Assembly (NCBI GenBank): GCA_032718475.1
Contig: JAUCBJ010004651.1
Location: 62,001 to 126,000 of the forward strand
From: Nemertoderma westbladi
Taxonomy: Eukaryota > Animalia > Xenacoelomorpha
DNA length: 64,000 nt
Direction of reading: 5' to 3'
The position numbers were made by a program, and so were the translations under genes. A model generated the notes under the pieces. That model had not been told where the DNA came from and did no database searches. It was given only the letters and a program-made list of their open reading frames with translations. Of this stretch, positions 1-59,707 are shown piece after piece (positions within the stretch are counted from its first letter, which is position 1; each line of letters begins with the position of its first letter).

Positions 1-306
1 TCCTAAAGGAACTGTTAATATTTCCCGAAAGTTAATAATATCTGTCAGAAATTAATTATTAGTGATCTATCGAATAATACAATAGGTTTACACTGCAACC
101 TTACACTGCAATAATAAAATCTAAGCATCCGAATTCAGCCTCCCGGGTGTAGATCCATCGGGTGAATGATCGCGCATGGGCTGGCTTCGGCTAATGTTTT
201 GTTTATTAGCATAAAATATTGTCGTATGCTAAAGGTGTGTTAATTAACTAAAAGACATATAAATTTTGGCAGGTTAAACTGCTAAAGGTCTTCAAAAGCG
301 CGAACA
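1..306 (+). repeat. 3' part of the 5' LTR of element A
   Basis: No difference seen by eye from 10762-11067; ends in ACA. Confidence 0.93.
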
Positions 307-318
307 GTAACAGTTATA
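307..318 (+). promoter_or_regulatory. Non-canonical primer-binding site GTAACAGTTATA (second copy at 390-399)
   Basis: Directly abuts the LTR end; no TGG; exact reverse complement TATAACTGTTAC at 10315-10326 in the LTR. Confidence 0.65.
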
Positions 319-745
319 ATCTTATTGCAGTAGGCAATAAGGTTGCAAGTGTAGGCATTAAATACAGTTTAATACTGTTCTGTCGAACAGTAACAGTTAA
401 CGATCTTATTGCAGTAAGCAATAAGGTTGCAAAATACCGTAGTGACCGGTAAAACTGAACCGGTACTTCTGCAGGTCAGTAGGCCTAACTGTCATCACCG
501 GTACCGGTACTGCTGTACAAGTACATTTAGTATTATTTCGATTGTGATCTATTGTATATTGTAGGCTGCCAGGGGAATAGGGATTGATCACCCCTCATTC
601 TTTTGTATAGTTTACTTATTTCTGTCGGTTTTATTTACTAGTAGGCTAATATTGAGCAGAAGGCGTGTGACCCTGCTCAGATTGTTCAGATAATTGTAGG
701 CTGAGCTGCTGTCTGACTGTTGTTGAGTTTGGAGAGATTACGGCA

Positions 746-1265: not shown

Positions 1266-2587
1266 TTATGCGATTATTCGCAACATTCATGTCCCCAAGT
1301 TTATTCCTACAGTAATTGTGCTTGTTATACATACCGTTATAGTTAAACTAACCCCGGTACTACATCAGGGCTGCTTGGCGTAGGTAAAGACTGACGACTT
1401 TGTGCTTCGGTCACTCCAGCAGATGCCGTGGTTCTTTTAACTGTTCAAGTATATTTAACTACTGATTATTTGTTATACCGGTACTTGTACCTAATTTAGG
1501 GTTTAGTGTACAGTGCTTTCCGAAGTAATTAGTGTAGGCAGTATATTTGTGTTGTAAAGTGGTTGATAGGCACATTCGTTAGCTCTATTAGCTACTGGGT
1601 AGGAACAATCCGTGATACATAACGTAGTACCTATAGCGATACGGTTATAGGTCGTCAGGCGGTGGTATTTTCCTATCTGGACAACGCAGTGTATTTACTA
1701 CTACTTATTATTTTCAAATACCGTAGTACCCTGTTCATTGTAATAACCAGAATTCTAACCCTTTGTTAGGCTGGTTTGTAGACTTCCTGTAAAATTACCC
1801 TAAAAATTTTGTACGTAATATTTTTGTTGTGTTTAATTAGAGAATTAATCTCACCCATATCGTAAGTAATTTGTAGTATTAAGTAACTTAGGTAAATTAG
1901 AATTATCAGTTTTAGTGTCTCAATAAGTAACACTTCACTGACAGCGCACAGCTTCTGTGTAGTGATTCCCCCAGAAATAATAACATTTATTTCAAATATT
2001 GACAAAAAACCCATTTAAACGGGTATATATCTATTATAAATCAACTCAAACGATTTATAAGTAGTAGGCCTGCCATACAACAACTAGGTCTCAAAATCAG
2101 TTGGACTACTGCTTAAATAACGGTAACAAAGTAAGTTAAAGTAACCAAGTAACCCTAAATATTCAGAAATTCAATTATTCTAAAATAATTGACATACCGG
2201 TATTTACCATAGGCTTATTATATTTATTTCTATAAATTTGAGCTGAAATCATACCGGTATTCTGTAATCAATTTTAGTTCATAGTTATACTTTATATATA
2301 TTATAAGTGTAAGCTGTATACCGGTATCCACGATAGGCCTATTATATATTTATATATTTATATATATATTTGTGCTAAATTTATACACCGGTACTCTGTG
2401 GCAAATCTAGTCTGTAATAATACTTATATATACTATAAGCATACCGGTATTCTGATATAATATATATATATCCCGCTATATTAAGTAGCAGTATCGGTAA
2501 TTAATTATTAGGCTAGCAGTGATACTGAATTACTAGACTTGCTTTAACTGTATTTATAGCCGTAGGCATTCAACTGTGTAAACAAAC

Positions 2588-5500
2588 ATGTCGGACACAA
2601 CCCAATCACTGTCGGATAGTCTTTTGGAAAGTGTTAGAATGACTGTTAGACAGTGTCTTAAAAAGATCAGTGACCCAGATCCCAGTATAGAACATCCTAG
2701 ATCCAAGTCTAAGTCACCTCCTGCTGTAAGAAAGGCCATCCCTACCGTAGTAGTGTCAGACCCTAGACTAGTAGAACACCGTAGGTCTATCATCGGAACT
2801 CGGGCCCAAGTCAAGCGGGATCAAGAAGCAGCTATCAAACAGCAGCAACCTCCTAGCCCAGAACCTAGTTCTCAGCGGCCCGATGGCTCCAGTAGTTCGG
2901 ATACTGCTGAGCGGAGACCCGAACACGGAGCGAAGATGGCGGATACGGTTTATGATGAGCGACCAACCTTTGAAGAATCAACCGACGCTGCTTCTCCTCA
3001 AGTGGAAAGCGAAGTGGAAAGCGAAGTGGAAAGCGAAGTGGAAAGCGAATTAACAGCAGCAGAGAAGCCGCGAACTAGAGATGCCATTGACATCTATCTG
3101 TCAGACTATCAGCGATTCATAGGAGACGAAGAGTTGAGGAGACGACTGTCTGGACTTCGCCCTAATAGTGAAGGAACCAAGCTTGTGTTGGACGCACTCG
3201 ATGCCGAAATGTTAACTGCAAACCAAGCTGAATGTGATGAAAAACTCCGCCTCACTAGAGTCCGAGAAGAACAAGTAAAGAAAGAACTGATAGAGACAAG
3301 AAGGGTAGCAGCAGCAGAAGCAGCGGAAGCAGAAGCAGAAAGAAAGGCAAAAGCGGCGGAAGCAGAAGCCGAAAGAAAGGCAAAGGTGGCAGAAGCACAG
3401 CGGAGAGCTTCTGAGGAGACTATTCGATTAGAGTTGGAAAATCTGCAAGAGACACAAGACAGTATAAATAAACAGTTTACTGCTAATCAAATGCAGATGA
3501 TGAGAAAATCTACTCCCAGACGTCAGGGATACACATCATCGGAGGAAGGCGAGACCACCGATCCTGAAGGCGGAGGAAATAGATCTCATCTAAGTAGGCG
3601 TAGAAAAACATCTTACCGTCACAAATTGCCTGATTTGCCCCCAGCTGTTAGAAGACAACTAGCTAGCACAGACTTAGGTAGTACAGAACCCACAGAACAA
3701 ATTATTCAGGTCACAAGACTCCCTACAATAGTTGATGAGCCTGAAATAATTAGGCCTGTCGTTCCCAAAGTCACTTCTGTGTTAGAGACCCCTGTACTTC
3801 CAGAGCTTAACTCTAAATTCCCTTTACATAGTACTACACTGCCTGTACCCGGTGGAACAGTCCATGCAAATACCCCTGTCCAGATAGCAGAGAGAGAAAT
3901 CAATAATTTGTCTCCCGTCGTCCCGCGTCAGCCCGCTACTATGTTGGCGACTCCTGCTTCGGCGGTTGAGTGGGTGGAAGAGGGACGGCGGGGGATGAAT
4001 CTCCTGCTAGGACAGATGCAGGAGACTGTCCACCAACTTAAGGGAACAGTGAGGGAAGGTAGAGCAGAGTTGCAAGAAGTGCAGCAAAGTATCGCACTAG
4101 AACGCGATAAATTAGTCAATATACAAAAGGGCATACCAATACCCCCTGTAACATTGTGTCAACCTGTTAGGTCTGAAGTATTACATGCGCAAGGTGTGGA
4201 GCCTACACGCATCTATACTGCTAGTGAAGTAGAAACTCCTATAGCAAACCCTATTAAGGGTGATTATAGACCTGTTATTAATGATATTCCCTATAGACCT
4301 GATAATGATCCGAGAAATTTATATACCGATAATTCGATATTAAATAACACGATGGCCCAAGAAAGCTTTATGCGTCAGATGGCTAGAACAGAAGCCCGCC
4401 AAGCGGTCAAAGTGGGAGAGATCGTCAAATTCAATGGAGATGAGATGAAATGGTTACCTTTCAACGAATATTACAAAGATAGCATACAGAACTCTGTACT
4501 ATCTAACGGAGAGAAACTTAGATTCCTCATCAAGTGCTTGGAAGGACCTCCCAAGTTAATGGCGTTAAAGTTTATTGGACATCCAGATGGATTAAGACAA
4601 GTTTGGGATACATTAAACATCAGGTATGGTAACAAGGATAACATAGCTAAGTATTTGTATGCAAAATTAGTAGCCCCCAGACACTTCCTTAGTAGCGGGA
4701 TTATAGAGTTTTCAGATGAAATTCAAGAGATCTGTAGACAACTGGACTGGTTAGGTAAGTCGCATGAATATCAGAGTTCCATGGTTATTGGAGCCGTAGT
4801 CTCTACTTTACCAAAGGGTGGAGTATGTACACGCTGGGACAAGAAAGTGTTGTACATGAATGAACAACAACGACGAAGTCCTACCATGGCTGATCTCATG
4901 TCCTTCTTAGATAATGAAGTAAAATTACAACTCATAAAGCAGTCCAGAGAGAAAACATCGGAAAATAAGGTAAGTGAGAAACCCGTTTCTAGGAGAAGGA
5001 TAATACCAGTGTGTTATACTGACGACGGCGAAAGCCAAGCTTCTCAAGAAGAGGACAGCGGGAAAGACACCGAACGATCTTACTATGACAACAAGACCTA
5101 TAAAGACGTAAGTAAATACAAGTCTCGAACCAGTGACAGGAGAGAACAGGTAACAACAACTCCTCCTACGTCACCTAAGAGAATTCACGGAAGAAAGCCC
5201 GAAGAAAGAACGAGAGTGCAGAACGTTAACCAAGTTAAGGTGAGTAACATCAAACCAAAATGTGCGATGTGCGACGGGCCCCACCGTTTGAGTGCGTGTG
5301 CAGAATTCCTAAAGAAATCCCTGGCAGATAGACGTGGAGTCCTGTGGGATAAGCGGTTATGTTATAACTGTCTCAGACGCGGACACCAGCGGCGAACCTG
5401 TTACTCTGACGCAAGGTGTGCCAAGTGCGGCGCGAAACATCATAGCTTGTTGCACACGGAATTCGAACGAAACAGCCCGAGTCAGGTAAGTGAGCCCAAA

Positions 5501-6691
5501 TCACATGTCCAATTCAGTGATGTGAACGACACTGACCAAAGTTCTGAGTGGGAAGGATTCTATACGGACGAATTCTCCGATGCCAACGAATCCTGTTATC
5601 TAATAAATACCGCAGTGTATCGAGCACTTACGTACGAAAAAGACACCGACACGGAGTTCCCCCCAACCACCTTTGACAAACAACCATCTTGGAAAGCTCC
5701 AGCTTCCAACGTAGGAATCAGAGAATTTCCTGTAGTTCAAGTAAGAGTTCACGGTCTTAACAAAAGCTACATAGTGAACGCCCTCCTTGACTCCGGCAGC
5801 ACAGGAACATTCATCGATCAAGAACTAGCCGAAGATATCTTTGCTGGACAACCCAAGTTCCGGACTAAATTGAATATGTCAGGAATTATGCAGGTTTGGA
5901 AATCTACCCTAACGGCAGATTACTATGTAGGTGTGTTGTCCACCCCCCAGGATAAGTTAGGAACACAAGGTATAAGGTCAGTAAAAATGGTGGCTATAAA
6001 GAACTTTGCTACTACTCAAGCAGAACCTTATAACTGGGACGAGGACGAGTGCATCCAACATCTTGAGATACCTCGATTCCAAACCGATTATCCTGGAGTG
6101 CAAATACTCATCGGCCAAAACGCGCATGAGGCGCTCGAGCCATTAGAGAAACGGCCTGCTCAACCACAGCCACTACAAACCTATGCGGTAAGAACTAGAG
6201 TAGGTTGGTACTTCACTGGCCCTTCCCGTAGAACTCTCAAAGAGAGATTACCTCAACAACAGGTATACCAAGTAAAGGGGGAAGTGGAGAGCAGTGATGT
6301 GGACGACCCAACTGAGGGAACACCATACTCCTCAGATAATGACGATATTAACTCCAATGTAGATCAATGGAGACATTGCCTTGGGACGATTAATCCAGCC
6401 GACATCGCTTCCAGAGGAGCAACTCCTCAAGAACTGATAGATACTCCAGGCTGGATAGGTGGATCCGACTCCTTAAGAAAAGAAGAAGAAGAATGGCCTC
6501 CTCATCTTACCACGGCAGAAATTAGACAGGCCAAGGGAGCGGAGAAAGTAACACCACAACTCAATCGCCCAGCTAGTCGTTTATGTTCACTGGAAAGAGA
6601 CCGAAAACTGTCCGAAAACTATGGAAGGCAAAATACTCTTCCTACGACTACTTCCCTAATCCGACAAATATCTAGGGACTCCATAACGTGA
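2588..6691 (+). CDS. gag: Bel/Pao Gag-protease polyprotein fused in frame to the C-terminal end of the Pao RNase H region; RT and integrase missing
   Basis: KFNGDEMKWLPF..KLRFLIKCLEGPP (DUF1759-like Gag); three Cys/His knuckles (CAMCDGPH..C, CYNCLRRGH..C, CAKCGAKHHSLLH); aspartic protease LLDSGSTGTF; QWRHCLGTINPADIASRG..W (Pao RNase H end); no YVDD. Confidence 0.9.
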   Translation: MSDTTQSLSDSLLESVRMTVRQCLKKISDPDPSIEHPRSKSKSPPAVRKAIPTVVVSDPRLVEHRRSIIGTRAQVKRDQEAAIKQQQPPSPEPSSQRPDGSSSSDTAERRPEHGAKMADTVYDERPTFEESTDAASPQVESEVESEVESEVESELTAAEKPRTRDAIDIYLSDYQRFIGDEELRRRLSGLRPNSEGTKLVLDALDAEMLTANQAECDEKLRLTRVREEQVKKELIETRRVAAAEAAEAEAERKAKAAEAEAERKAKVAEAQRRASEETIRLELENLQETQDSINKQFTANQMQMMRKSTPRRQGYTSSEEGETTDPEGGGNRSHLSRRRKTSYRHKLPDLPPAVRRQLASTDLGSTEPTEQIIQVTRLPTIVDEPEIIRPVVPKVTSVLETPVLPELNSKFPLHSTTLPVPGGTVHANTPVQIAEREINNLSPVVPRQPATMLATPASAVEWVEEGRRGMNLLLGQMQETVHQLKGTVREGRAELQEVQQSIALERDKLVNIQKGIPIPPVTLCQPVRSEVLHAQGVEPTRIYTASEVETPIANPIKGDYRPVINDIPYRPDNDPRNLYTDNSILNNTMAQESFMRQMARTEARQAVKVGEIVKFNGDEMKWLPFNEYYKDSIQNSVLSNGEKLRFLIKCLEGPPKLMALKFIGHPDGLRQVWDTLNIRYGNKDNIAKYLYAKLVAPRHFLSSGIIEFSDEIQEICRQLDWLGKSHEYQSSMVIGAVVSTLPKGGVCTRWDKKVLYMNEQQRRSPTMADLMSFLDNEVKLQLIKQSREKTSENKVSEKPVSRRRIIPVCYTDDGESQASQEEDSGKDTERSYYDNKTYKDVSKYKSRTSDRREQVTTTPPTSPKRIHGRKPEERTRVQNVNQVKVSNIKPKCAMCDGPHRLSACAEFLKKSLADRRGVLWDKRLCYNCLRRGHQRRTCYSDARCAKCGAKHHSLLHTEFERNSPSQVSEPKSHVQFSDVNDTDQSSEWEGFYTDEFSDANESCYLINTAVYRALTYEKDTDTEFPPTTFDKQPSWKAPASNVGIREFPVVQVRVHGLNKSYIVNALLDSGSTGTFIDQELAEDIFAGQPKFRTKLNMSGIMQVWKSTLTADYYVGVLSTPQDKLGTQGIRSVKMVAIKNFATTQAEPYNWDEDECIQHLEIPRFQTDYPGVQILIGQNAHEALEPLEKRPAQPQPLQTYAVRTRVGWYFTGPSRRTLKERLPQQQVYQVKGEVESSDVDDPTEGTPYSSDNDDINSNVDQWRHCLGTINPADIASRGATPQELIDTPGWIGGSDSLRKEEEEWPPHLTTAEIRQAKGAEKVTPQLNRPASRLCSLERDRKLSENYGRQNTLPTTTSLIRQISRDSIT

Positions 6692-7207: not shown

Positions 7208-7780
7208 TAAATCTGTTAAACTTTTGACCATCTGTAATTCTAGTCAATTAAGATATCGTGGCACCCACCGATATACTTGAAAGACAAATTCTAGAATCAG
7301 TGGTTAACGTCCCCAGACAAGTTCTGGAATAAATCGGTGCCCATCCTAAATATTAATTTAATATTTATTAAAATCTGTAAAATTCAGATCCGTTAACGAT
7401 TCTAGTCGATTAAGATATCGTAGCACTTACCGATACTCTTAAAAGACAAATTTTATAGAATTAAGGATCCTAAGTCCCCAGATATGCTCTGGAATAAAAT
7501 TTGTGTCAATTTAACATCAAATAATAAAATTCACGGGAATAAATTTAAATTCATATTCAAATGAATTTCATAAATTGTCATTTTGTGCAATTTATAACAT
7601 TCCCAAAATTCCAGTAATTAATAGATCATGGGAGCGGAGATTCATATTGAGTGTATTAGAGTGTGAGAATCTCCAACATATAGTCAATAGCCGATAAAAT
7701 TTATAAAATCATGCATAAAGAGGATATTGACAATTAAAGAATTACTATTAAATAACATCCCAGATCTGTATGCATGAGAA
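7208..7780 (+). ncRNA. Three tandem predicted structured RNA modules between pol remnant and accessory ORF
   Basis: Copies at ~7208-7345 and ~7370-7510 with covarying stems; third divergent module ~7613-7777; shared TAGTC..GACAA(A)TT and (T)CCCAGA motifs. Confidence 0.5.
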
Positions 7781-8309: not shown

Positions 8310-9759
8310 ATGACGGAATTAATAGAAGATGACCTTGGTATTAGAGAGCGATATACTCTACCTTTACAAGCGTTTGTGGATAGCTTGATACGCGGTGAAG
8401 CCGATCCGACTATTACGGAGGACGATGGTCATTATATCGAACCGCCGATGTCCCAAGAGCAACTTACGCGTGAATTGGACTATCGAAAATTAACCGCTCG
8501 CTATACGCATCGTAATGGTACGTATATGGACTTCTTAACTACCGGCCATCCTATCGATTTACATGATACGGACAATGTAGACACCCTAAAGGGAAATGGT
8601 TCTATTTAAATATCATACCCAGCGGAGTCGTAACGATAAACCGAGAATAGATCACGAAAATTCTATTCGTAACAGACTGGGAAGACGAACCAATATGCCT
8701 AGAATCTGAGGAGATTCAGCCTATCGCGCTCGGAACAGCGACTACGATTACAGCCTAGAATGGTATCAAAGTCCACAGTGTCTCACTGCGTACGATTATC
8801 GCCATGCCAACTATGTTTCTCGGCAACGTTGTCGGTTATGCGCATCGAGAGACCATGTTACGCCCATGGACACAAACGTCCGCTGTTCCTATTTCCACGA
8901 ACAACCGGCGATGGAAATTTATTGCGCGTATTGCAGATTTAATAATTTGCACATTTTTGCGGTTTGCCCTCAATTTATGACTCAATGTCACCATTGTCAA
9001 CTAAAGGGACATGCCAGTTTCGATTGCCCTTTTAATCACGATTTGGAAAGCGTAGATGAAATGATCACACTACGTTACATCAGAGCTTGGGAAGCGAACA
9101 CTGATTTATATTGTGATTCGCGCCATCGCTATTATCCCGGACGCGCTTACGAAGGAGTTTATGCATTACATCCTTATCTATTCGCTTCGGTTGAACAGAA
9201 ATCACGCATATCAAGTTACGAGCTACTGAAGCGCGTCGGAGAATGTATTTCAACCAAATTCGTACGCAAATTTCTCAGGAGTGTTAATCCTAGCGACCTT
9301 CATCCCTATAACTTAATCAATCATATCCGTCAGGATCCGGACTATGGAGACTTATTCGTCAACTCACACCCTGAGTTACAGGAAGTATATCGACGGCCTT
9401 ACGAGTACCGAGCCCGCGAACGCGAGTTGGAAAGAACCATTAAACCAAGGAAGTTTCTAACTGCCTATGGTCCACCCACGGCCCTCGTGCAGACCACTCG
9501 TACAGGACCCGTAAGAGCGGCTGTCTTGAAACGAGCTCTCAAAGCCGTTAGACCCCTCTCCCCGGACGTTGATGTCAATCAACCCGGTACTTCGACCGGC
9601 GGATATACCGATCGCAATCCCATACCTTCTGATGCAATCATATTGCACCCTTCACCCAGGAGTTATAGCCCTCCTCGTAAAGTGGCTCGCCCCAAAGAGA
9701 AAAGGACTCTTGCTAGCTTTAAAAAACTGCGTAAACGCCGTCCGCGCAAGAAAGACTAA
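8310..9759 (+). pseudogene. Deleted, frameshifted copy of the accessory ORF (paralogue of 11733-15986); keeps the N-terminus and C-terminal zinc-knuckle/NLS part
   Basis: MTELIEDDLGIRERY start and FKKLRKRRPRKKD end identical to the 1417-aa ORF; +1 frameshift near 8586; ~2.8-kb deletion near 8690. Confidence 0.9.
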
Positions 9760-9837
9760 CTGTTTAGAGTATTTACGTATATTAGAAACTGTGATTTTTG
9801 TATATTTATAGACTCAAATCCCATTTTCTGGGAGCGG

Positions 9838-11067
9838 TGTAAAAGCTTCTGTGGGATATAACTGGCCCCTTTTGCTTCGCAATCCAGTTTCCCCCCAGGC
9901 GCTGGAATACTCTAAAAAGGTTCTCTAACTGTATATATATTCCCCTCGCCCGCAAGGTACCGTTACAGGTGTTTTAACGGACATAAAAGTCATTCTGCTA
10001 TATACGTGTTTTAGCGGACATGGTAAGGCAAAAAACCTGCAATGCACCAAATACCTTTCACAGCTTAGCCGTGATGATTCATATTACGACATCTAACAGC
10101 TGGTTGCTGACATGGAAACAGCCATTGGATGCATGGTTCTTTGTTTGGCTTGAGCCAATCAGAGCGTTTTTTCCTGTCGACGTGTAGCTTTTCGGCCGAT
10201 CATAAGGAGAGTGTTCAGTCTTACTGTTTTTACTTGATACTTTGTTGTTATTGCTGTCTAAGCCAGAAACACCGGCTCTAAGAACTCTAGTAAAACTGCT
10301 TAGATTATAGAAAGTATAACTGTTACCGGCAGTGTTACCTCACTTAATTTAATTGCACTAATCATATTGTTTGTACTGCTATTTACCGTCAGTTATTAAT
10401 TGTATCTATTTGTTGATGGAAATATTGCTCTTTGGAGAATACGGATAAATCACCCCAAATTCCCAATTTTCTTGATACACTACAGGTTAGAGAGGCGGGC
10501 TATATATAACAATTGCGATTTATATCAATGTGGTGTGTATTGAATCTAATGTTATTTAGTAGACACTACCTGAGTCAATTGCTGTTCTCTTTATGTGTGA
10601 TCAAATATACTGACGGTCGGCAGAATAGTGTGCATGATTGTGAGTGTGATGTGACTGGTAACAAAGCATTTCCTAAAGAATGCGACTTATACTTTAATCA
10701 TAAGCCTTATCGTTGCGTTTAGTATAAGTCCTAGCTCTGTTTAAATAGATAGAGCGCCACGTCCTAAAGGAACTGTTAATATTTCCCGAAAGTTAATAAT
10801 ATCTGTCAGAAATTAATTATTAGTGATCTATCGAATAATACAATAGGTTTACACTGCAACCTTACACTGCAATAATAAAATCTAAGCATCCGAATTCAGC
10901 CTCCCGGGTGTAGATCCATCGGGTGAATGATCGCGCATGGGCTGGCTTCGGCTAATGTTTTGTTTATTAGCATAAAATATTGTCGTATGCTAAAGGTGTG
11001 TTAATTAACTAAAAGACATATAAATTTTGGCAGGTTAAACTGCTAAAGGTCTTCAAAAGCGCGAACA
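9838..11067 (+). repeat. 3' LTR of element A (1230 bp, TGT...ACA)
   Basis: Preceded by PPT-like TGGGAGCGG; CCAAT box AGCCAATCAG ~10154; end matches 1-306. Confidence 0.9.
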
Positions 11068-11155
11068 GGCCCTACCAGTAAATTTAGAAATAGTTTGTAA
11101 ATATTTTATATTTCGATTGGTGAAAACAGCCTTACTTACTGTTTTCATGGAGCGG

Positions 11156-11527
11156 TGATGAATTATTTCACTATAAGATAGCATTTGTAGTTTAACTTTA
11201 ACGTAAAAACTTTCGAAAATCCGACGTATTTTGATTAAGTTACAGTAATGTAATATGCCTATTCATATTTGTACACATAAAACCCTTAGGTACTCTCGTG
11301 GCGTAGTGGTCAGATGGTTAAGGCGTTGGTTACATTACATAGGTTACGAGTTCGAATCCCAGTCGGGAAATTTGTATTTTGGGGCCATTTATTTTCGTGT
11401 GGTGCTAATTGGTAGGCCAATGAGAAGCGTACAGCGTAGCGAATGATGAGCCAGGCCAATCATAGGGCATAAATTATCTTATTGCTCAAATGTGAGGCAG
11501 TGGAAAATTCTGTTAGGATTCCATGCT
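11156..11527 (+). mobile_element. Truncated LTR of a further Bel/Pao family ('D') with tRNA-like Pol III boxes
   Basis: PPT-like GGAGCGG then TGATGAATTATTTC, similar to the start of the element C LTR; A/B-box-like sequence at ~11300-11365 followed by CCAAT boxes. Confidence 0.5.
11299..11370 (+). ncRNA. tRNA-like sequence (degenerate A box, B box GAGTTCGAATCCC), not a functional tRNA
   Basis: TGGTCAGATGG and GTTCGAATCC at tRNA-like spacing; no convincing acceptor or anticodon stems. Confidence 0.55.
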
Positions 11528-16064: not shown

Positions 16065-17277
16065 TGTAAAAGCTTTTGTGGGATAACTGATTCGTTTGCC
16101 TTGTTGGCCAGTTCCCCCCCGGTCGCTAGAATAGTGCAAGCTTTAATAGCACGCTTAAAATAGTGCAAGCTACCAGCTTATTGGCTGATTTGCTGTACGC
16201 AGGTATCTGGGCTCTGTTTAATCGGCCAACTAGCCTAGGAAGGTTGCGTCATAGCCTTGTTTTTGTATCTCCCAATAGAATTTGAGTTAGCCTTGATTTT
16301 GACCTATCACAGAGCTACTGAACTGAAAATTTCCTATCTCACTGCTCTTTCTCTGTGTTGAACGGGAGCTTCGTGGAATAAGGGTAGTTGGTATCCTCGT
16401 ATAGAGAGTAGTCACGAGTTTTTCAAAGCCACGAAAGAACGGCTTTTTAGTGTTTTGTGCTTTCTGCTTTTTAGCTCAACACTAGTAGGTTTAATTATAA
16501 GGACATATATCCTTTAACTGCAATTTCGTAATCACTGCAAACTGCTGACGCACACGGCTTTTAATCTTGAATATCTCACTGCTAAAAATTACCTGCTCAA
16601 TCAATACGGTATACTGCTATTTGTTGTCGGTTATTCATTATATTTGTTGATGAATTATTATATTGGAATAACGAGAAATAACCCCGAAAACCCAATATTC
16701 TTGATATACCGAAGGTAAGAGAGAAAGGTTACCTATAACGATTGTGACTTATGTTAAAGTGGTTTGAAGTGAATCTAATGTTATTTGATAGACCCTACAT
16801 GAGTCAGTCTGTGTTCCTTTTATATGTGACTAAAATCAGTGAAGATTGGCAGATTAGTGTGCAGTATTGTGCAGCATTGTGTATGAGTGAGTCTGTTAAA
16901 GAAGCAATTCCTAAAGAATGCGCCATATATGTGAATTATAATTAAGCCATATCGTTGTGAGTAGTTTAAGTCATAACTCTGTTTATATAAATAAAGCGCC
17001 ACGTCCTAAAGGAACTGTTAATATTCCCTAAGGTGAATAATATTGTCAGAGATTATATAATACTGTCAGTCGAATAATACATTAGGCTTACATAGCAATA
17101 AAATTAAACCGTCGAACCCAATCTCCCGGGAATATCCAGCGGGTGAATGATCGCGCACAGATTGGTTTCGACTAGTGTAGTGAATCAAATTCTTGTCATA
17201 GGCTAAAAAGCGATTTAATATCTAGAAGACATCTTAATTTGGCGGATTAAACTGCCAAAGGTCTGAAAGCGCGAACA
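16065..17277 (+). repeat. 3' LTR of element B (1213 bp, TGT...ACA)
   Basis: PPT TGGGAGCGG|TGTAAAAGC; ends AAAGCGCGAACA; 3' half homologous to LTR A. Confidence 0.88.
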
Positions 17278-17482
17278 GTGGGCGTATTAAAAAGTATCAG
17301 ATAAGGCATATAAACTACTACATAACTTGTTGAAATCGGAGTAGGAGATAAAGGTTTATTAAGTTATTTTTATCACACTGACAACATTGAAACCTTCCTT
17401 ACATACCGTGTAGTGCGTTACATACCACTAATAAACAGAAACTAACCAACATAACTTAATTCAAACCATTTTATTGTATCAG

Positions 17483-18678: not shown

Positions 18679-19193
18679 CGTGACGTCACGCAGTCTAGTA
18701 GTCCTAGCAACGTTGGAAGTCGTATTAACTTATTAGTTTTGGTTTGATTTTATTAGGTGTAGTGAGTTATACTATTACAATAATATTATTCCCTTACACT
18801 TTGCTTTTTATTAATTAATTATTAGTTCACTTTTTATTAATTAATTATTAGTTCACTTTTATTAATTAATTATTGGTTTAATTTTAATTTTTAGTGTCAT
18901 AATTAATTAGCTAGAACAATAATTATTAGTTCCATTGATTTAATCGTACTCATTTATGTCATTCTCGGTTGCGAGATTTATACATTTTGCAATATTAGTG
19001 GTTAATATTTTAGTATAGTTGCAACCTATATCGCCCCGATGCTTTTAATAATCTCATTCTCATACATTGCAGTCACAATAATAATTTATACTTTGTTTAT
19101 AATATCTAACCTTTAGCATTAGGTTTTTCTCACTTATCTGCTTACAAAATAAAATATTTCAAATGTTGAACAAAAGAACGCACTGATGGCATA

Positions 19194-20676: not shown

Positions 20677-21221
20677 GGGTCCAAGTAGAGAAATTAGTAC
20701 ATTTTGAGAATACGAGTTTGTTTACATTTCTGTTCATTATTTTAATGTTGTTTCAACGTTTTCTTTATTAATTTTTATTTATTAATATTCAATATGGAGC
20801 TATTTAATATTTATACTCATGGCTTTACGAATTTTGTCTCTGATCTGGTTTATTTAGGATTTATATTTAGGTTCAATTTATTGTTTGTTGGTTAATATTG
20901 AGGCTACGGTTTTGTATATTTTGGAATAATTTTGGTTTTAGTGCTGATGTTCTATGTGAAGCAAATGGTGCCATAATGTTTTTATAGTATTATTATTTTA
21001 TATAAATTGTAATTAACTTTGTCAATAAAGTCTAAATGAAGCTGCGAGAAACTGATATTTATGTTTGTTCATCGCATAACCAGTGTAACTATTAATATTG
21101 GAAGCGGAAGGTGTCCGAGGCGGAGAGTGGCCAACTGCTGCTCTAAGGGGACTATTACCCCCAACCGACCGACCAACTGACCTGCACAAAAGTTTCCATA
21201 TTTCTCGTACAAACGGTTTTT

Positions 21222-43102: not shown

Positions 43103-43144
43103 TATGATATCGTACTGTATAGTATATACGTACATATTTTTCAG

Positions 43145-45009: not shown

Positions 45010-46075
45010 TGGTAAGGCAAAAAACCTGTAATGCATTAACTACCTTTCACAGCTTAGCCGTGATGATTCATATTACGACATCTAACAGCTGGTTGCTGAC
45101 ATGGAAACAGCCATTAGATGCATGGTTCTTTGTTTGGCTTGAGCCAATCAGAGCGATTTTTCCTGTCAACGTGTAGCTTTTTAGTCGATCATAAGGAGAG
45201 TGTTCAGTCTTACTGTTTTTTCTTGATACTTGGTTGTTATTGCTGTCTAAGCCAGAAACACCGGCATTTTTTGGATAGATACTGCTGTACCGTAAACTGC
45301 TTGAATTATCGAAAGTATAAACTGTTACCGGCGGTGTCACCTTACTTAATTAACATACTCACTTAATTTAATTGCAATAATCATATTGTTTGTACTGTTA
45401 TTTTACCGTCAGTTATTAATTGTAAATATTTGTTGATGGAAATATTGCTATTTGGATAATACGGATAAATCACCCAATTCCCAATTTTCTTGATAACACT
45501 ACAGGTTAGAGAGACCGGCTATACATAACAATTGCGATTTATATTAATGTGGTGTGTATTGAATCCAATGTTATTTAGCAGACCCTACGTGAGTCAATTA
45601 CTGCTCTCTTTATGTGTGATCAAATGTACTGACTGTCGGCAGAATAGTGTGTATGATTGTGACTGGTAACAAAGTATTTCCTAAAGAATACGCTTTATAC
45701 TTTAATCATAAGCAGTATCGTTGCGTTTAGTATAAGTCCTAGTTCTGTTTAAATAGATAAAGCGCCACGTCCTAAAGGAACTGTTAATATTTCCCGAAAG
45801 CCAATAATATCTGTCAGAGATTAATTATTAACGATCTATCGAATAATACATTAGGTATACACTGCAACCTTACACTGTAATAATACAATTCAAGCATCCG
45901 AATTCAGTCTCCCGGGTGTAGATCCATCGGGTGAATGATCGCGCATGGGCTGACTTCGGCTAATGTTTTGTGTATTAGCATAAATTATTGTCGTATGCTA
46001 AAGTGGTTTTAATTAACTAGAAGACATATAAATTTTGGCAGGTTAAACTGCTAAAGGTCTTCAAAAGCGCGAACA
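45010..46075 (+). repeat. LTR of the A family (may extend to 44347 with a different U3)
   Basis: Aligns to 10021-11067 with scattered substitutions; ends GCGCGAACA; no TSD found. Confidence 0.9.
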
Positions 46076-48401: not shown

Positions 48402-49177
48402 TGTTGGAAGAGACGTACCTAATACACGGAATCCTGCAATATCATACTGTAAAGTCTGTGAATCAAAGCATAAATCCAACCTTCTCACCAAAACAGTAAA
48501 CTCTAAGTAAGCAAATCTATTGCAGTATCGGTCTCTTATAACCAGTGAGGCAGAAGACAGTCTACGAACGGACAAACTTCGATAAAACAAAATCCCGCGC
48601 AGCGAATCCTAAAATCGTGCTGACTCACTGACGGACTAAAGGCGCTCGTATACTTTGCCGCGGTGTGATTTATATGGGGTGGGTGAGGGTTGCTAGCTAA
48701 GGGTCTAACTAGCGGGCAAACTGCAGTACGGACAAAATTATTTTATATATTTCGAGGTGTAAATAATTCTTAACGCGTGTGTGTTTTGATTCTAACAGTC
48801 GAAATCGGTTTTAGATCCTTCACATATATAATTACTGGGTCCGGTGTACATTTTACAAATATTCTAATTTTGTAGTTTGTAGGTCCAATACTCACAAATG
48901 ATAAGGCTCCTTCCCCTTTTGTGTATTTCCAGGACTCAAATTCAGGCATAAGGTTAATACTACGCACGGAATTCGGCAATTTAATTTAACAGGTCCCTAA
49001 TACTAAGAAGAAATGTGTTAGTTTATTACAGTAGGCGTACAGTTACGAATATCTAGCCTGGCTTTCTATCTAGAATTTTGGTTGCCTAGGTGGGCACGGC
49101 AACTCCTTATCAGAATGTCGGCGGGGACACGGTAGATGTTAGTATCCCTAATAGCCTTAATTTATATGTGCGCCTAG
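48402..49177 (-). repeat. 3' LTR of C, truncated at its U3 end
   Basis: Matches 55984-56742 apart from a few substitutions and a 16-bp indel. Confidence 0.92.
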
Positions 49178-49204
49178 AGATGAGATTTATGACAAATTAA
49201 GCCA

Positions 49205-52200
49205 TTATAAATTATCGGACTCCAACTCAATATTGGTGATGACTTGATTGGTTGACCTTGACTTATGGATGTGAATTCGCTGAGCTTGTAGCTCAGCGCG
49301 TGGTGTCGTCATGTACTTAGTAGGCATGGTCTTAGCCTTAGAAGTAATGAGCGAAACATCGAACTCATCTGAGTCTACTTGTCTGCGCAGATACGCTGTA
49401 ACTCCAAAGCCGTTGTCACTGGTGTCGGAAAAACAATGTAATTCTAAGTTGTCAAGAAATGTCGTCTGTAATGGAAAATATACCCGGGGTATGGAATAAT
49501 CTTCTAGTGAAGACAATTGTGCCTCCCATAAGTCCTCATAAGTTTTCCATAAGTCTACTTGTTCTGATGAGATCGGTTTGTCCCATGTCAGTCCATCTTT
49601 CCAAATACTGCGCATGTATATTCTTGCTTGCAGTATTATTGGGCTGATAAAACCTAATGGATCGAACAATCTACTCAGTTTTGACAAGCAAGACCTCTTT
49701 GTCAGAGAATCTCCTTGAGCGTCCAGTCTTACTTTCATTCGAAAGTTGTCTGTGTTCGGATCCCAAAATAGTCCCAACACTTTTGTCGTTGGTAGTGGTT
49801 CGAATTCCAAATCAATGTCACCACCCCCACATTCGGTCGTTTCGAATGAATTCACTAATTCGGTACTATTTGAAGCAAACTTGGTGAGGTTAAAACCTCC
49901 GCCTGCTAAACAGTCCCGTAATTGATGTGCTACTGTTATAGCACGTTCTACTGTGTCACAACTTTGTAATCCATCGTCAACGTAAAAGTCTCGTTCTACT
50001 ATTTGGATTACCTCTGGGTCATACTTATGTTTCTGGTCCCTAGCGGTCTGCTTTAGGGCGTACATAGTACAATTTGGGCTGTCTCTGGCACCGAATACGC
50101 GAACTTGGTTGACTTAAGTCTCCATCCGGGTACCAGAGGAACCTCAAACTGTCTCTGTCTCGCTCTAATGCTTGCACTTGGTGAAACATCGCTTCTACGT
50201 CGCAAGTAAATGCTACTTGACGTTGACGGAAGCGCATAATCACCCCCATGAGATAATTATTCATGTTTGGTCCATCCATCAACTCCGTATTGAGAGACAT
50301 TCCCTCAAAAAGAGCCGCGCAGTCATTAACTATGCGTACCTTTTCTGGTTTGTCGGGGTGTCTCACATAGTGATGTGGCAAGTAGTATGTCTGATCTGTC
50401 ACAATCTCTGGGTTTGTCATTCGGATAGCGTACCCTTTTGTCAAATACGTCTCCATTTGAGTATTGTACTGTAAATGGGCTTTCTCGTCCTTTAATAAAC
50501 GTTGTCGTATTGAGTTTAAACGTTTTAAGGCTAGCGGATAATTATTTATAAGTTTAGGACATTGGTTACGCCATAACATCCCTACCTCATAATGTCCGTC
50601 TTTCGTCTGGCGGATAGTATCTTCCATGATCTTTAAAGATTGTTTCTCTTGTTCCGACATACATGGTTCGTAACTACCTGGTTCAGCGGTATCTTGTTCC
50701 AACCATTTGATAGTTTTCTCTGTTAATTCTTTGTCCAGTGCAGCTTGTTCCACTTGACAATTTCTTAATGCGTCGGCATCGACGGGCATTGATAAAGTTA
50801 TTGGTTTAGGTAGACTCGCAAGCCTTCCGGCGTTATCATCAAACTTACCAAACATCAATCTCTAAACTTACCTTTTTGTGGAGTGGTTTCTGCTCTTTGT
50901 GACTTATTGTACTTGCTACACACGTCGTACTTGTAACATTGTCGTGTTTTGTCGAACGTTGTGTAGTATAGTCTCTGTCGTTTGAAAAGGAATGAGTCAA
51001 AGTTGTAGTTAATAAACTACATGTACTTTGCACATCATCTTCCTCATCACTTATATCTAGTGTGCGCACAGGAGCTCGAGTATACCAACCTATCGGCGTT
51101 CTGCAGGCGTATGCGTTTCCTGCTACGACTACCGATGGTCTGGTTTCCCACACTTGATATAAGTTGAATTGGTCTGTCCCGATCAGCATTGCTACTGACC
51201 TGTAATTAACAGGACATTCAGGTACACCAAGGTGTCTAAAATACTTACGGTCCTCCAAGGGTTGTTCTGGCACAGGACCCAGTAGGTTACTAAAGTCCTT
51301 TGTGGCCGCAAAGGTTAAATCCTTAAAAGGTAGCAAAGACCTCTCCTCTTCGCTATGTTGCGATTTTGGAAGAAAGGTGTCCAAGTTTAACTTAACTCTT
51401 GTCACTGGTATTGCACGTTGTCCATGCGTACTACTTACAGTATATCTGACGTTCTTACCTTGTTGAAGGTCCGTCACGACGTCAGCTACCTTCTCATCCA
51501 CGTAGCTGTGAGATGAGGCTGAATCCAAAATAGCGTAGATCCGTTTGCTCCCTTTGGTGCCCATAATCTTAACAGGAATTACGCTAAATCCCTTCAGTTG
51601 ATCAGGCGTCAGAAGCGCAATCAATGGTTGTTCGTCCCCAGTGTTGAAATATACGTCGTCGTCTTCGGACTCTTCATCCGACGACCCGGATTGTTCTGGG
51701 AAACAATCCCGTATATGCGTCACAAAAGTTGGTGTTGTTTTCGATTCTCGTGTCTTGTATGCAGTGTTGCATTTCGCTGCTGCTTCTGGGTGTTCCCTGG
51801 TGAAGCGTTTCATCGGTGTATGACTATCCGTGTGGAGCAAAGCGTCATGATTGCGTCCACATGAAGGACAGGTGTCCATATTTGGGCAATCCTTGCGGAC
51901 ATGTCCGTGTTGTGTACACCTCCAACAAGAATCTAACGGCCTTATTTGTAGCCGTCGTTCTTCTGAGTTTAACTCGCGAAATAGTCGACATCCCCTTAAC
52001 TTATGGCTAGTATGCCGCTTACCCATCCGCTCGCAGTATTGACAACCGCTGAAGTCGGCAGTTAGTTGCTGTCTAGTCTGTTTGATCCCAATAGGTGGGG
52101 ACACTTTACAACCGTCGGAAAATTGTCGGGTTTCTGTTGGTGTAGCGTAGGTGACCGTCCTTGTGGATGTCGTCTGTGGGTTTTGTCGGTTGGAAGATGG

Positions 52201-55142
52201 CAAAGTAGATATTAATAGGTAGACATCTTCCAATCTCAAAAATCCACCCTTTTCTTCTCGCTGATACTCGATCTTTCTCCACTCCCTACGAAGTCGATGG
52301 TGTAGTCTCCCTATTATTTTCAATAGGACTGTAGGAGTGTTTGCGTAATCAAGTTGTCCAATTGATCGTAACGTCGTAATGGCGTTCTTAATTTCGTCAG
52401 CTAGTTTCAGTAAGTCAATGGGTTTTGTAATAGCCCCCCCCCCCCTTACAGAGTTCCTCTATTACCGACTTGGCCATACTTACTGTACCTCCGTAAATTG
52501 AAGTTAAGCGATCGTAAGCTAATTCAAAGGCGTCTGGTACACCGACAAAAGTCTCTGCTAGACGTTTTGGTTCTCCCGTCAGTGTTTTAAGCAGATAATT
52601 GAACTTTTCCCTCGATGTAAACGCACATGCGGCAATTTGAGATTCGATATAATCCACAAACGTATGCCAATGCTTGGAGTTACCGGAGAACTTTGGTGGT
52701 TGCTGCACTGGTAGTCCTTGCCTAGCTGCGAATTTAGCTATCTCCTCAGCGACATTCAAAGCTTCGCGTCCTTGGGTGGCAATCAAGTTAATATTCTCCC
52801 GTCTTGGCGCTTTCCTTTGGTACGAAGTATTTCTTGAAGGTATCGCTCTTTGCGGATCCTTCGGATTTCTAGTGTGTTCGAATTCTGTATTTCTCGAACT
52901 ATCGGTTTGAGCTTCCTCTAAGCGTTCTTCGATCTGGGCCAACTTGTTGACAACTGGTCGCATTAGGTCGGCGAATTGTTGCGTACAAATCACGTCCGTT
53001 GGTTGTAACGCTTTCTGTGGTGGTGTATTTTGTGGAGGATCATTCATAAAGGAATTATCTGAACACTCACGTTTGCATTCATCGGCCGCTCCTGTTCTAA
53101 ACACCTCGCGTTCGGGATAATCCGATTCGCTTGAAGTACTACTAATGCCTGGATACGGTGGCGACGTGCTCGCGTCCATTGTGTCGTCCGAATTCTAACA
53201 TTCCGTTTTGAAACATCGTCTACTGGTCTCCGTCGTTCGGTAGGCTCGCAAGTCTTCCTCGAAGTCGTAGATTGTGATGTAAACTGGTTAAGCGGTCGCG
53301 TGTCTACTGGTCTCCCTTGTTCGGTAGGCTCACAAGTCTTCCTCGAAGTTGTAGATTGCGATGTAAACTGAAACTGTGGTCGCGTAATGGCGTTTGCGTC
53401 TAAAGTCCTCGTAGGTCTAAACACGGTTGGGTTTGCGTAGTGAGTGACAGGTTTGGGTGTTGAAAGTTGACTCACCTGTTTAATCGTCAGTAATGCAGGC
53501 CCTGCCAATAAACTGCTACGATCTGTATTTGGCAGGTTACTTACCTTGACTTTCGGAATAGGCGATGACGTTGCTCTTCGCGGTATAAACTTGTCCGGAA
53601 TAACAAACCTGTGTTCCGTCGCATCGTGTATAGGAGATATACTGCTACTACCCGCAATCGAAACAGGTCCTTTATTCGTAATTGGTGCAAACATAGGTGT
53701 TACTTGAGGAAATCGTTGACATAAGTCTTTAACTATTTCCCGTTCTCGCTCAGGTGCTCCTACGCTTCCTTCCTTTATTCGTTCCTGAATTTGATGATGC
53801 CTTACCTCTATCCGGTCTAGATCGTGTCCGTCTCGAGATCTCATTGATCGATCGCGGGCTTGAAGATCCAGATCTTCCTTGGCGTTGGCTAATTCTCTCG
53901 CCTTCTTTTCGAGTTCGAAGTGAAGTTTAACTTCTTCTCGCGTTGTTCCGTCTGTTGTTGTTGCGCCTTAAACTCCGCTAGTCGTATAGCTGATTGAGCC
54001 TTTATCTGTCATTTTCTCAACTCGGCTCGGGCTTCCGAAACTCGCTTTTGTTCTTCCAACTCTGCTGCTTGTCGTTCCAACTCAGCTGTTGCTGCTCGTT
54101 GCGCTAACTCAGCTGCCGTTGTTTGCTGTGCTATTTCTAGCTCTAACCTTTCCATCTCAGCTGCTTCTAGTTCGGCTGCTTCTTGCAGATGAGAGATTCT
54201 CGCAACATTTGCGACGCGTAGTTTCTCTTCCTCTACAGCTGCTTGTACAGTTAATAATTGAGTTTGTTCCTCAATTTCTCGTTGTTGTCTGTAGAACTGT
54301 TGTTGCTGTCGAGAAATTTCTGACGTTACCATACTCACCTCGCCAATTTCGCTGCGAATACTCACCAATGATTGATCCAGTTTCCAGATCCAGATTCCCG
54401 GTGCCAGTTCGATTTGTACGGGTGAAGTTTCCCTCGTAGCCTCCGGCACAGTTTCCCAATCTCCGACGTCTTCGCCGCACATATGTAAGTGATCCGTCAG
54501 GTATTTCAATTGTCCATCCAGTCTGTACAGTTCCTGTTCTTCCTCGGGTTGCAATAATTTGTCGGAAACTGACTAACCTAACAACTGATCCTCTTGTTCT
54601 TGTTGAATCAGTCTAACGGCCGTCTTAAACTGAATTAGTTTCTCCCTAGCGATTATTAATTTCTCGAGGATCTTAAACTGTGTGTCCGTATCCTGTCTTT
54701 GTCTAGCTAGATCTTGTAGACTGATTAGGTTACTTACGGACTTATGTACTTTACTCTGTACTCTAACCTGTAAGGTATAGAACTCGAACCGGGACATCGG
54801 AGCGGTCAACTCGTTTAATATGCGTTGGACTTCTCCAATACTCCTGGTGATATGCGCCATGTATCCTCCGAAGCTTCTAACAACGCTCTCTTGGCTTCCT
54901 ACTGAACTTACCATGTCCGTTTCCCTTTATCTAGGTTGCGGAACTGTTAGAAAATCCTCAGTCCTGCCGTCGCCTCGTACTATGGCATCCGGTACTCCCG
55001 TTGGATGTACTGGTGACGCACACGGTGTAGGTTCGGTAGGCTCGCGAGTGTTCCCTTGTGGTTCTTCCGCTACTGACTTATCTGCGTCACATGAGTCATA
55101 GTCGGTATGTGTATTCTTCGTATAGTCCTGTTTGTCACTCAT
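49205..55142 (-). pseudogene. Frameshifted Bel/Pao gag-pol (Gag, zinc knuckles, protease, RT, partial RNase H)
   Basis: PPKFSGNSKHW..KFNYLLKTLTGEP; CWRCTQHGHVRKDC; ILDSASSHSYV; YYLPHH..KVRIVNDCAA..DVEAMFHQV; FYVDD; LHCFSDTS..TTPRAELQA; split over eight ORF pieces. Confidence 0.92.
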
Positions 55143-55972
55143 TTCAGTAGTTGTAAGTCAAGTAAAATGAGAGTGTCAAAGTATCAAACTTACCGTATTT
55201 ATATCAAAACGGTACTAATTACAATTCAAACATATAAAATTAGCCTACCGGCCGATTTTATAGCAAATGGATAAAATTAGCCTAGCTGCCAATTTTACAG
55301 CAAATAAATGTCACGGAATAAGTATATAATAAAATTAGCCTATCGGCCAATTTTATAACAAATAAATCGGATAACAATATATGTTATCAAAATGTAATTC
55401 AAACACAAATGATACGGACTAATTCAGCAATAAACAAAGAAATCGTACGGAATGCATAAATACTTGAGACAGTGGAACCCACAATAATTTTAACTAATAC
55501 GGTAATGCCTAACTGATTAATGCAACCTTTCGAACTTACCCCCTCCAAAATTCTCCAGAAAAACAGATTCCCAGATACAAACCGGACGTGAACCTTTCCG
55601 TTTCCAGCGTTGCGGACGAAGTGCGATTTTCCCCAACCAAAATTGTTGAGTTATCAATCTCCCAAACTTGCTAAACACGGTCTTGCTCCTGTTACAGTCT
55701 AGAAATGAACTCTGAATCCTGAAAAACAAAAGAGTTTGGTTTTACTTTTACGAAAAATTTTGTACCGGTACAATATGGTATTTAAACCCTTTTGAAACAC
55801 CGGTATTCAATTCCAAATATTTTACACACGGTTCAAATCAAAATTTTATTCAAAAAATCAGCACTTAGCTAATCAAATACAAATTTTTACCTCAAAATAC
55901 AAATTTTTTCAAATAATTTTTGTCCTACTGAACTATAGTTCAGTAAAACACATTCCTACTGTTGTGTAAAAC

Positions 55973-55983
55973 CACATTCCTAC
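55973..55983 (-). promoter_or_regulatory. Non-canonical primer-binding site GTAGGAATGTG of C (second copy 55949-55959)
   Basis: Abuts the LTR end CCAACA; exact reverse complement at 56987-56997 in the LTR. Confidence 0.65.
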
Positions 55984-57878
55984 TGTTGGAAGAGACGTAC
56001 CTAATACACGGAATCCTGCAATATCATACTGTAAAGTCTGTGAATCAAAGCATAAATCCAACCTTCTCACCAAAACAGTAAACTCTAAGTAAGCAAATCT
56101 ATTGCAGTATCGGTCTCTTATAACCGGTGAGGCAGAAGACAGTCTACGAACGGACAAACTTCGATAAAACAAAATCCCGCGCAGCGAATCCTAAAATCGT
56201 GCTGACTCACTGACGGACTAAAGGCGCTCGTATACTTTGCCGCGGTGTGATTTATATGGGGTGGGTGAGGGTTGCTAGCTAAGGGTCTAACTAGCGGGCA
56301 AACTGCAGTAAGGACAAAATTATTTTATATATTTCGAGGTGTAAATAATTCTTAACGCGTGTGTGTTTTGATTCTAACAGTCGAAATCGGTTTTAGATCC
56401 TTCACATATATAATTACTGGGTCCGGTGTACATTTTACAAATATTCTAATTTTGTAGTTTGTAGGTCCAATACTCACAAATGATAAGGCTCCTTCCCCTT
56501 TTGTGTATTTCCAGGACTCAAATTCAGGCATAAGGTTAATACTTCGCCCGGAATTCGGCAATTTAATTTACCAGGTCCCTAATACTAAGAAGAAATGTGT
56601 TAGTTTATTACAGTAGGCGTACAGTTACGAATATCTAGCCTTTTGGTTGCCTAGGTGGGCACGGCAACTCCTTATCAGAATGTCGGCGGGGACACGGTAG
56701 ATGTTAGTATCCCTAATAGCCTTAATTTATATGTGCGCCTAGCAATAAACTGCCCTACCGCCTGAACGGTACAATCTTAATTCAGGTAAAAGCACAGTAA
56801 CCTCTCCAAGCCTACAAACTCCAATGCAAACAATGGACACCGTTGTACTACAAAACAACCAACCAGCGCACCGATACCTGGCAAATGAGTTAGGCGTACA
56901 GTTTACTGTACCCTACCAATGTGTATGCCTTGTACTGGTGTGCCTGTGTCCTATCTGTGTACTAGTATCTCTCTGCCTGCCCTCCCGTAGGAATGTGAAG
57001 GTCTACTGCGGGTTTTTATCTGGATCAAGACAGTACAGTTCCTAAATTTAATTTTTAGCGCACAGCGTGTCACTACCTCTACCTTTGATCTCAGGTCTTA
57101 CACTTAGGTAGCAAGGCATCAAACGCTGTCTAACCTTTCAGGCGATGGGCGAATAACTAAGAATGGATATTGCGGGTGGTCTCCTTCCTACATTCCGCCG
57201 ATGTTCCCGTTTATTGCCACGGCCCGCTGTCTAGCCTGCCATATGTTCCTCAGTTGGGTTCACAGTGGTGAAGCATGATAAAACAGATGTAACAAATACT
57301 TCTAACTTTATTACAAAATAAACGATAAGGGTATATAATGTATAATAGCATAGATTAAAGTAACGTACTAAACACAATAATCTGAATACTAAATGAACTG
57401 AAGAAGTTTTATAAGTGAAGTGAAGATAGTTAACTAATGAACAAATCGCACCCTTTTATAGCAAATTAGTGCTGCTAACAATCGAGATAAATCTAGATTG
57501 TTCTATGAGTTCCATTAGATTTTTAAAGATAATCATTGGTCCAGCAAACGCGTATCTTGCACGACATTGGTTACTGTCAAATAACTGCAATCACATTGGT
57601 TAATCTACCTTAAGCAGATACAATTAAATCGTAGCGGTCAATTCAAATGAGTTGAAATCTAGCACAAAAAATAATTCGCACCTGCTAGGATTTGAACTCG
57701 ATACCTACTAAACGATTTTCTAACGCATAACCAACTGAGCTACTGAACCACTTGAACAATGTTGTACGAATAGCTATAGTAAATGCAAATAAGGACTTAA
57801 TGTAATCTTTATAACAAATTAATTCCAACAAAATAAAATTTTGAAAATCCACGGCTTTTATGAGGATATAATTCTATA
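55984..57878 (-). repeat. 5' LTR of C (~1.9 kb): tRNA-like boxes, CCAAT boxes, TATAAAA (57454-57460)
   Basis: Bounded by the TSD; outer terminus reads TAT instead of TGT; only 55984-56742 can be checked against the other LTR. Confidence 0.7.
57678..57749 (-). ncRNA. tRNA-like sequence with A box TAGCTCAGTTGG and B box GAGTTCAAATCC inside the U3 of C
   Basis: Boxes at 57731-57742 and 57688-57699, followed by a T-run; cloverleaf is degenerate. Confidence 0.6.
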
Positions 57879-59528: not shown

Positions 59529-59707
59529 GGGACTGGTCACCCTGATTATCAAGTTAGCCCGGGCAATTGATTCGCCCAAGTTTAGTGGAAGACATCAGGC
59601 AACGATCTCGCCGCCAGTAGTAGTTTGTGTACTTTGGTATCTATTATTTAGGCCCGATTGTTGGGATTTTACAGTAGATATTGTACAACAGTTACTGGAC
59701 TTTACAG

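Follow-up and report, generated by a model that had tools for sequence, protein, structure and literature searches.

In the long terminal repeat (LTR) retrotransposons Tf1 and Tf2 of Schizosaccharomyces pombe, and likewise in Tj1, Tosmo1-3 and the Tf1/sushi group, there is no primer-binding site (PBS) for a tRNA, and the site that follows the terminal CA of the LTR complements the element's own LTR (accessible parts of PMC4600332 and PMC10085805). The same partial sources describe, for Tf1 and its relatives, a self-primer lying at the mRNA 5' end that pairs with the PBS in a leader of three duplexes (PMC10085805, PMC4600332). Self-priming has also been predicted, from complementarity alone, for TAR (Houba, Osr-1) in Ty1/copia and for Tcn1 in Ty3/gypsy (PMC6317226, available in part). 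The accessible portion of PMC3601003 discusses an ancestral versus a repeated origin of such hairpin priming. BEL/Pao is a major LTR superfamily of animals; tRNA-independent priming has so far been demonstrated for Tf1 and predicted in some plant lineages. The ICTV profile of the Belpaoviridae gives an 18-nt PBS that complements the 3' end of tRNA-Arg or tRNA-Gly, with LTRs measuring 0.2-1.2 kb, and it describes BEL/Pao replication as poorly understood and assumed to be tRNA-primed (PMC8742986). We found no report of self-priming in BEL/Pao in the openly accessible parts of the literature (subscription journals, Repbase, GyDB and supplements may mention it), and terms for the PBS are absent from the accessible portions of the papers on Sinbad and on the BEL/Pao survey. 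Here we describe two BEL/Pao elements, A and D, in a 64-kb stretch of a Nemertoderma westbladi contig (the window), in each of which the site after the LTR end is an exact complement of a segment inside the element's own LTR (Table 1).

Table 1. Coordinates of the features of elements A and D and of the LTRs related to A, in positions of the window.
Feature	Position	Strand	Remarks
A 5' LTR, 3' part	1..306	+	ends CA; rest off-window; 100% identical to 10762-11067
A PBS, non-tRNA	307..318	+	flush with LTR end; exact complement of 10315-10326
A predicted 12-bp hairpin	317..345	+	just 3' of PBS; ViennaRNA local fold; recurs after second junction copy
A second LTR-end/PBS junction copy	380..399	+	10-nt match at 390-399, 83 nt downstream of first
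A gag-protease ORF with RNase H C-terminal remnant	2588..6691	+	open; the 1,369-aa frame spans 2582-6691
A copy of extra ORF	8310..9759	+	internally deleted, frame-broken; of the B residues, only 1-124 and 1058-1404 are matched
A polypurine tract	9830..9837	+	immediately before TG at 9838
A 3' LTR	9838..11067	+	1230 bp, TG...CA
A candidate self-primer	10315..10326	+	contiguous, in 3' LTR, 741 nt before LTR end
A only AATAAA of LTR	10874..10879	+	547 nt downstream of primer 3' end
Element B LTR	16065..17277	+	~73% like A; 5-nt core only at primer position; own PBS off-window
LTR C	45010..46075	+	89% like A
LTR C primer site	45316..45328	+	one extra A; complementary to the frequent PBS variant that has an extra T
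Element D	48402..57878	-	broken BEL/Pao; 5-bp target duplication; integrase and first part of 3' LTR deleted
D PBS, non-tRNA	55973..55983	-	flush with LTR end; without TGG; second copy at 55949-55959
D 5' LTR	55984..57878	-	1895 bp, TA...CA
D candidate self-primer	56987..56997	-	exact 11-nt complement of PBS, in same 5' LTR, 1003 nt before LTR end

The long open frame of element A contains DUF1759 (PF03564, E 8e-12 in Pfam), three Cys-His knuckles are visible in its Gag translation, and 44 of 45 homologues of the frame carry PF03564 and/or PF05380. When the element was mapped by tblastn against full polyproteins, the alignment covered Gag and protease (PR) and then jumped to the C-terminus of RNase H (RH), so that A lacks reverse transcriptase (RT), the greater part of RNase H, and integrase (IN). 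Since PR leads into an RNase H tail and both RT and IN are deleted, we classed A as a non-autonomous BEL/Pao derivative; judged from its sequence, it is a young, non-autonomous BEL/Pao LTR retrotransposon. Membership of Tf1/sushi (Ty3/gypsy chromoviruses) was also considered, and was rejected because Gag, PR and RH are all of BEL/Pao type.

A sequence-only reading of the window had claimed that the 5' LTR of A is followed by no TGG, and that the site found there instead is an exact 12-nt complement of the element's own LTR with the pairing flush to the LTR edge. Both claims were borne out. The LTR ends in ..GAACA, with its CA at 305-306, and the PBS follows directly, TGG being absent at 307-318; the window's + strand contains the reverse complement of the PBS a single time, at 10315-10326, where pairing ends at 12 nt. 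Because the 306 nt of the 5' LTR that lie inside the window equal the 3' LTR, a 5' copy of the primer is expected ~435-446 nt before the window start. The same reading had put the chance of such a match at about 1e-4. The match is indeed rare, and the figure itself proved slightly too low: dinucleotide shuffles of the A LTR gave 12 nt at offset 0 in 8 of 20,000 trials and at offsets 0-3 in 21 of 20,000, and 20 of 63,970 window positions score at least 12 nt against the A LTR, which corresponds to a chance level of ~3-4e-4. A longer, bulged extension of the pairing, which uses a repeat of 4 nt lying upstream of the primer, is missing in LTR C and was taken as chance.

LTR C does keep the primer site with a 1-nt insertion, as had been noted from the sequence. 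Identity between the LTRs of A and B ranges from 0.54 to 0.78 upstream of ~10340 and from 0.60 to 0.92 downstream, too blurred to place a U3/R border. We noted that the base after the 3' LTR end is G, the first PBS base, in all three A-family LTRs (11068, 17278 and 46076); this is not so for D, nor for some flanks in sequencing run X5. The recurrent G may reflect a target preference or a retained primer base. Polypurine-tract-like sequences are also present upstream of A's extra ORF (7625-7638) and past A's 3' LTR (11140-11152), each followed by a promoter-like stretch, and A may have inserted into the internal region of B.

Next, we compared sibling copies. The A-family LTR is present in six of nine sequencing runs, all as contigs, and the contigs of four runs (X1, X3, X4 and X5) were compared over positions 200-470. 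Over this interval, no variant that would make a TGG is among those listed at 1% or more for the sibling contigs of the four runs, and no TGG stood at the LTR end among the 22 listed of 66 loose ends. The objection that siblings with a normal TGG PBS would expose A's junction as a deletion artefact thus found no backing among the variants listed for these runs. By depth, a T inserted behind 313 is present in all four runs, making up 25% of the summed depth in X1 (74,571/301,809, 27 contigs), 19% in X3 (28,649/147,555, 5 contigs), 63% in X4 (27.4/43.4) and 100% in X5 (266.4/266.4). With this insertion the PBS is an exact 13-nt complement of the LTR C site, as matched by eye on short, unphased contigs. 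A second variant, G307A, accounts for ~31% of the depth in X1 (101,919/330,686), 20% in X3, 37% in X4 (16/43.4) and 0% in X5. It counts against self-priming, as the terminal primer pair would be broken unless the LTR changes along with it. The junction repeat of A is skipped in one X4 contig. The B-family PBS, which we had predicted beforehand, was not among the sibling rows listed; this, like the 5-nt core left in LTR B, is a further point against.

Element D represents a second, unrelated family. It carries PF05380 (E 9e-36) and PF03564 with the order PR-RT-RH; its Gag/PR is 24-32% identical to that of A, and the two LTRs do not align. Another D copy, from run X4, has a purine-rich tract before the same LTR start. 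The complement of the D 11-mer has its only + strand match in the window at 56987-56997, and shuffles of the D LTR reached 11 nt at offset 0 in 3 of 20,000 trials and at offsets 0-3 in 30 of 20,000. D shows the 5' LTR primer copy directly, and it does so in letters that differ from those of A. In both elements the LTR-end/PBS junction is repeated in tandem (307-399 in A, 55949-55983 in D), with periods of 83 and 24 nt, respectively. Upstream of its primer, the D LTR has a TATA-like box (57460) as well as two AATAAA motifs; their use would leave the primer outside R and so would count against self-priming. No variant of the D primer or PBS occurs among the 40 listed of 252 variant rows, a count that is uninformative.

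Several further observations concern the D LTR. It starts with TA, not TG, its first 590 nt resemble a self-contained promoter and poly(A) unit, and contig depth is low at 57254-57401; the LTR is possibly composite. Another LTR fragment, at 59396-59528, is 74% like the D LTR and lies in the opposite orientation.

To place A and D among their relatives, we used a BEL/Pao RT alignment, which led to 14 loci (L002-L015) in genome contigs of bacterial metagenome-assembled genome (MAG) assemblies. These are probably animal host contigs contaminating bacterial MAGs. Three loci with no LTR (L003, L004 and L015), one with no readable LTR end (L013) and one whose 5' end is off the contig (L010) were left out, giving nine readable junctions, with inferred LTR ends for L007 and L012; Pfam identified BEL/Pao domains in each of the 10 scanned ORFs, which come from the nine loci used. 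None of the nine junctions has a TGG in its first 8 nt. At offsets 0-2, an 11-nt match to the own LTR across a GT..AG pair was found in five of the nine (0-2 of 300 shuffles). With stricter splice patterns and offsets 0-6, the own-LTR complement reached 11 nt in seven of the nine, as did 1-12 of 1000 shuffles for each; the offset range had been widened after two cases were seen by eye, and L007 needs offset 5 and L014 offset 4. Six of the seven primers are split by a predicted intron, and that of L014 is contiguous. A split primer was considered for A and D as well and rejected, the best split scoring 6-9 nt, below the contiguous match. The two weaker loci are L006, with 8 nt (75/1000), and L011, with 9 nt at offset 5 (24/1000). 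As L002/L008 and L005/L009 are related pairs, the seven positives amount to ~5 independent groups.

A cross control supported the specificity of the matches. All 11 PBS scored best on their own LTR, with two ties, both between the related L002 and L008, and among 110 cross pairs 11 nt was reached in two and 10 nt in four. Between L005 and L009, whose LTRs are 85% alike, two PBS letters differ, as do the two matching letters at the exon ends. An AATAAA, which strand transfer would require downstream of the primer, is found downstream of the primer 3' end in 8 of the 10 LTRs examined. A Copia element nested in L002 (1671-6390, - strand), taken as a control, has a different PBS, and the complement of that PBS in its own LTR is at most 4 nt. 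In a quick tree, built without an outgroup or named lineage references and with six proteins left out, D and all the loci fall outside the arthropod clade (SH-aLRT 99), D on a long branch whose position is weakly supported; these elements may have Sinbad/Suzu affinity. Two scans of viral contigs yielded 0 loci. The only match of a metagenome pattern scan, L001, was set aside as a bacterial sequence that matched by chance and is not similar to the window. On balance, we lean slightly towards the view that a broad, mostly marine-invertebrate branch of BEL/Pao dropped tRNA priming and primes from its own LTR, most of its families having the 11-nt primer put together by host splicing of an LTR intron, and A and D being intron-free with a duplicated junction.

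We then investigated how the proposed primer might fold onto the PBS. When 1.1 kb of RNA beginning at the primer was folded, the predicted D helix had pair probabilities of 0.94-0.98. This depended on where the RNA was taken to start: the D helix scored 0.98 from 56999 and 0.0 from 57100, 57440 and 57878, and the A helix scored about 1.0 from 10313, 0.55 from 10215 and 0.01 from 9838. The predicted D helix extends by 6 bp across a 4-nt bulge at the LTR end. The same geometry appears at the second junction copy of A, where the predicted pairing joins 380-385 to 10327-10332 over a bulge of 4 nt; this 6-bp flanking duplex was not predicted at A's first junction. In a two-strand fold of A, the primer paired with the duplicate at 390-399, the PBS at 307 having a probability of 0.0, and by a rough additive estimate pairing at 307 is ~17 kcal/mol worse than at the duplicate. 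Since the LTR end requires priming at 307, this preference of the A fold counts against the proposal, as does the dependence of both helices on the RNA start.

Collectively, the complementarity and the analogy with Tf1 make it probable that the A family self-primes minus-strand reverse transcription in cis, from its own LTR RNA and not from a host tRNA. The self-priming that the sequence-only reading had implied is thereby supported at the level of sequence, and the mechanism is one that we infer. By analogy with Tf1, the A transcript would start at or near the primer, or be processed there, and the primer of 11-13 nt would fold onto the PBS. A nuclease, probably RNase H, would cut just 3' of the primer; the primer of Tf1 is reportedly released by RNase H cleavage. 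As A has no RT of its own, the RNase H would have to be supplied in trans. RT would then extend the new 3' OH across 741 nt of R-U5, and plus-strand synthesis would copy the primer into the next PBS. Such copying of the primer into the progeny PBS would explain the insertion at the LTR site that has its mirror image in the PBS. In the relatives from other animals the primer would mostly be joined by splicing of the predicted LTR intron, whereas A and D would carry it ready-made.

The same pairing could instead be a conserved RNA structure, such as a leader switch, a cyclisation helix or a packaging helix, with a different true primer. This would suit the strong dependence of pairing on the RNA start, the preference of the A fold for the second junction copy, the 4- to 5-nt offsets needed by L007 and L014, and the G307A variant. 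We nevertheless regard a structural helix as unlikely, given that the match has a primer-like length of 11-12 nt, that in A, D, L002, L008 and L012 it stops flush at the CA closing the LTR, for which there is no purely structural reason, and that all 11 scored elements are without a TGG site after the LTR end. It is also conceivable that the primer derives from the element and acts in trans, a short RNA (a piRNA or a processed fragment) that ends at 10326 annealing to a PBS on a different molecule. Transcription would then not have to start at the primer, in agreement with the folding results; the great abundance of the D family in the sequencing runs compared is a further point in favour. The 6-bp extension predicted for D and for the second copy in A, however, resembles a leader fold in cis, and we consider trans priming very unlikely.

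Half-tRNA priming exists in Copia lineages (PMC6317226, available in part), and the PBS might accordingly bind half of a tRNA, or some other RNA, of the host, the LTR match being a captured copy or incidental. Against this, nine elements with ~8 different PBS sequences each match best on their own LTR, six of them only across a predicted intron, and no tRNA gene (ARAGORN) or Rfam match was found within the window. Independent capture of the right fragment by each family would be unparsimonious, and this explanation is highly improbable. That the match arose by chance, or at a deletion junction peculiar to copy A, is hardly credible: a single 4e-4 event could be selected from many looks at 64 kb, and A is internally deleted elsewhere, but the junction is common to siblings in four runs, D repeats the pattern and so do seven of nine external elements.

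The extra ORF that lies before the 3' LTR is open over ~1,417 aa in element B (11733-15986, + strand), where it has zinc-knuckle-like motifs. It has no sequence homologues, no Pfam match and no PDB sequence match in our searches, and its fold prediction (pLDDT 30) was unusable. Atlas features linked residues 700-960 to the 3'-5' exonuclease family PF01612 (0.93, 24 of 30 matches; 0.87 for the whole protein). As a lead from this model, the product is possibly a DEDD 3'-5' exonuclease. DEDDy ORFs occur in LTR elements of rotifers (PMC5408684, available in part). We think it quite unlikely that the A/B-family product, if it is such an exonuclease, helps to trim the primer.

Other features of the window were also recorded. 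Segments with tRNA-like A and B boxes lie inside the elements, upstream of CCAAT boxes, at 11299-11375 (+) and 57742-57670 (-); neither ARAGORN nor Rfam made a call on them. Right after the LTR of B, a GC-rich frame of 407 aa (17455-18678, +) encodes a translation-factor GTPase (PF00009), presumably GTPBP-like. Large minisatellite arrays with periods of 29, 47-60 and 36-38, together with a 900-bp imperfect palindrome, occupy 19046-20900, 28800-33000, 59600-62500 and 42216-43105.

If A and D do prime themselves, self-priming would occur in all three LTR superfamilies, and, should the broader reading of the BEL/Pao branch hold, reverse transcription in one of them would be gated by splicing. Such a distribution would be relevant to the question of an ancestral or a repeated origin of hairpin priming. 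Self-priming would also explain failed PBS searches on elements of this kind and, by our own reasoning, would place them outside tRNA-fragment control of the PBS. From the claim follow exact predictions, different for each family, of where 5' ends and cDNA junctions should lie.

In most respects these elements conform to the Belpaoviridae (Semotivirus), having LTRs, a polypurine tract, a 5-bp target duplication (in D), a DUF1759 Gag with three Cys-His knuckles, a Pao-type RT/RNase H in D and an extra ORF before the 3' LTR. They depart from the family profile in that A, D and nine of nine external junctions have no TGG PBS, that the D LTR measures 1.9 kb, and that A is without RT and integrase. 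TAR and Tcn1, for which the prediction was of the same kind, belong to other superfamilies and to lineages of plant hosts. The proposed working of A and D is that of Tf1 self-priming, without membership of Tf1/sushi. One flanking duplex is predicted for D and for the second junction copy of A, whereas the 'pretzel' of Tf1 has three duplexes. Unlike Tf1, A and D are BEL/Pao elements whose primers lie 741 nt (A) and 1003 nt (D) before the end of the LTR, their junctions are tandemly duplicated, and the position of the primer at the mRNA 5' end is here a deduction. By further contrast with Tf1, the primer is split by a predicted intron in six of the nine external relatives.
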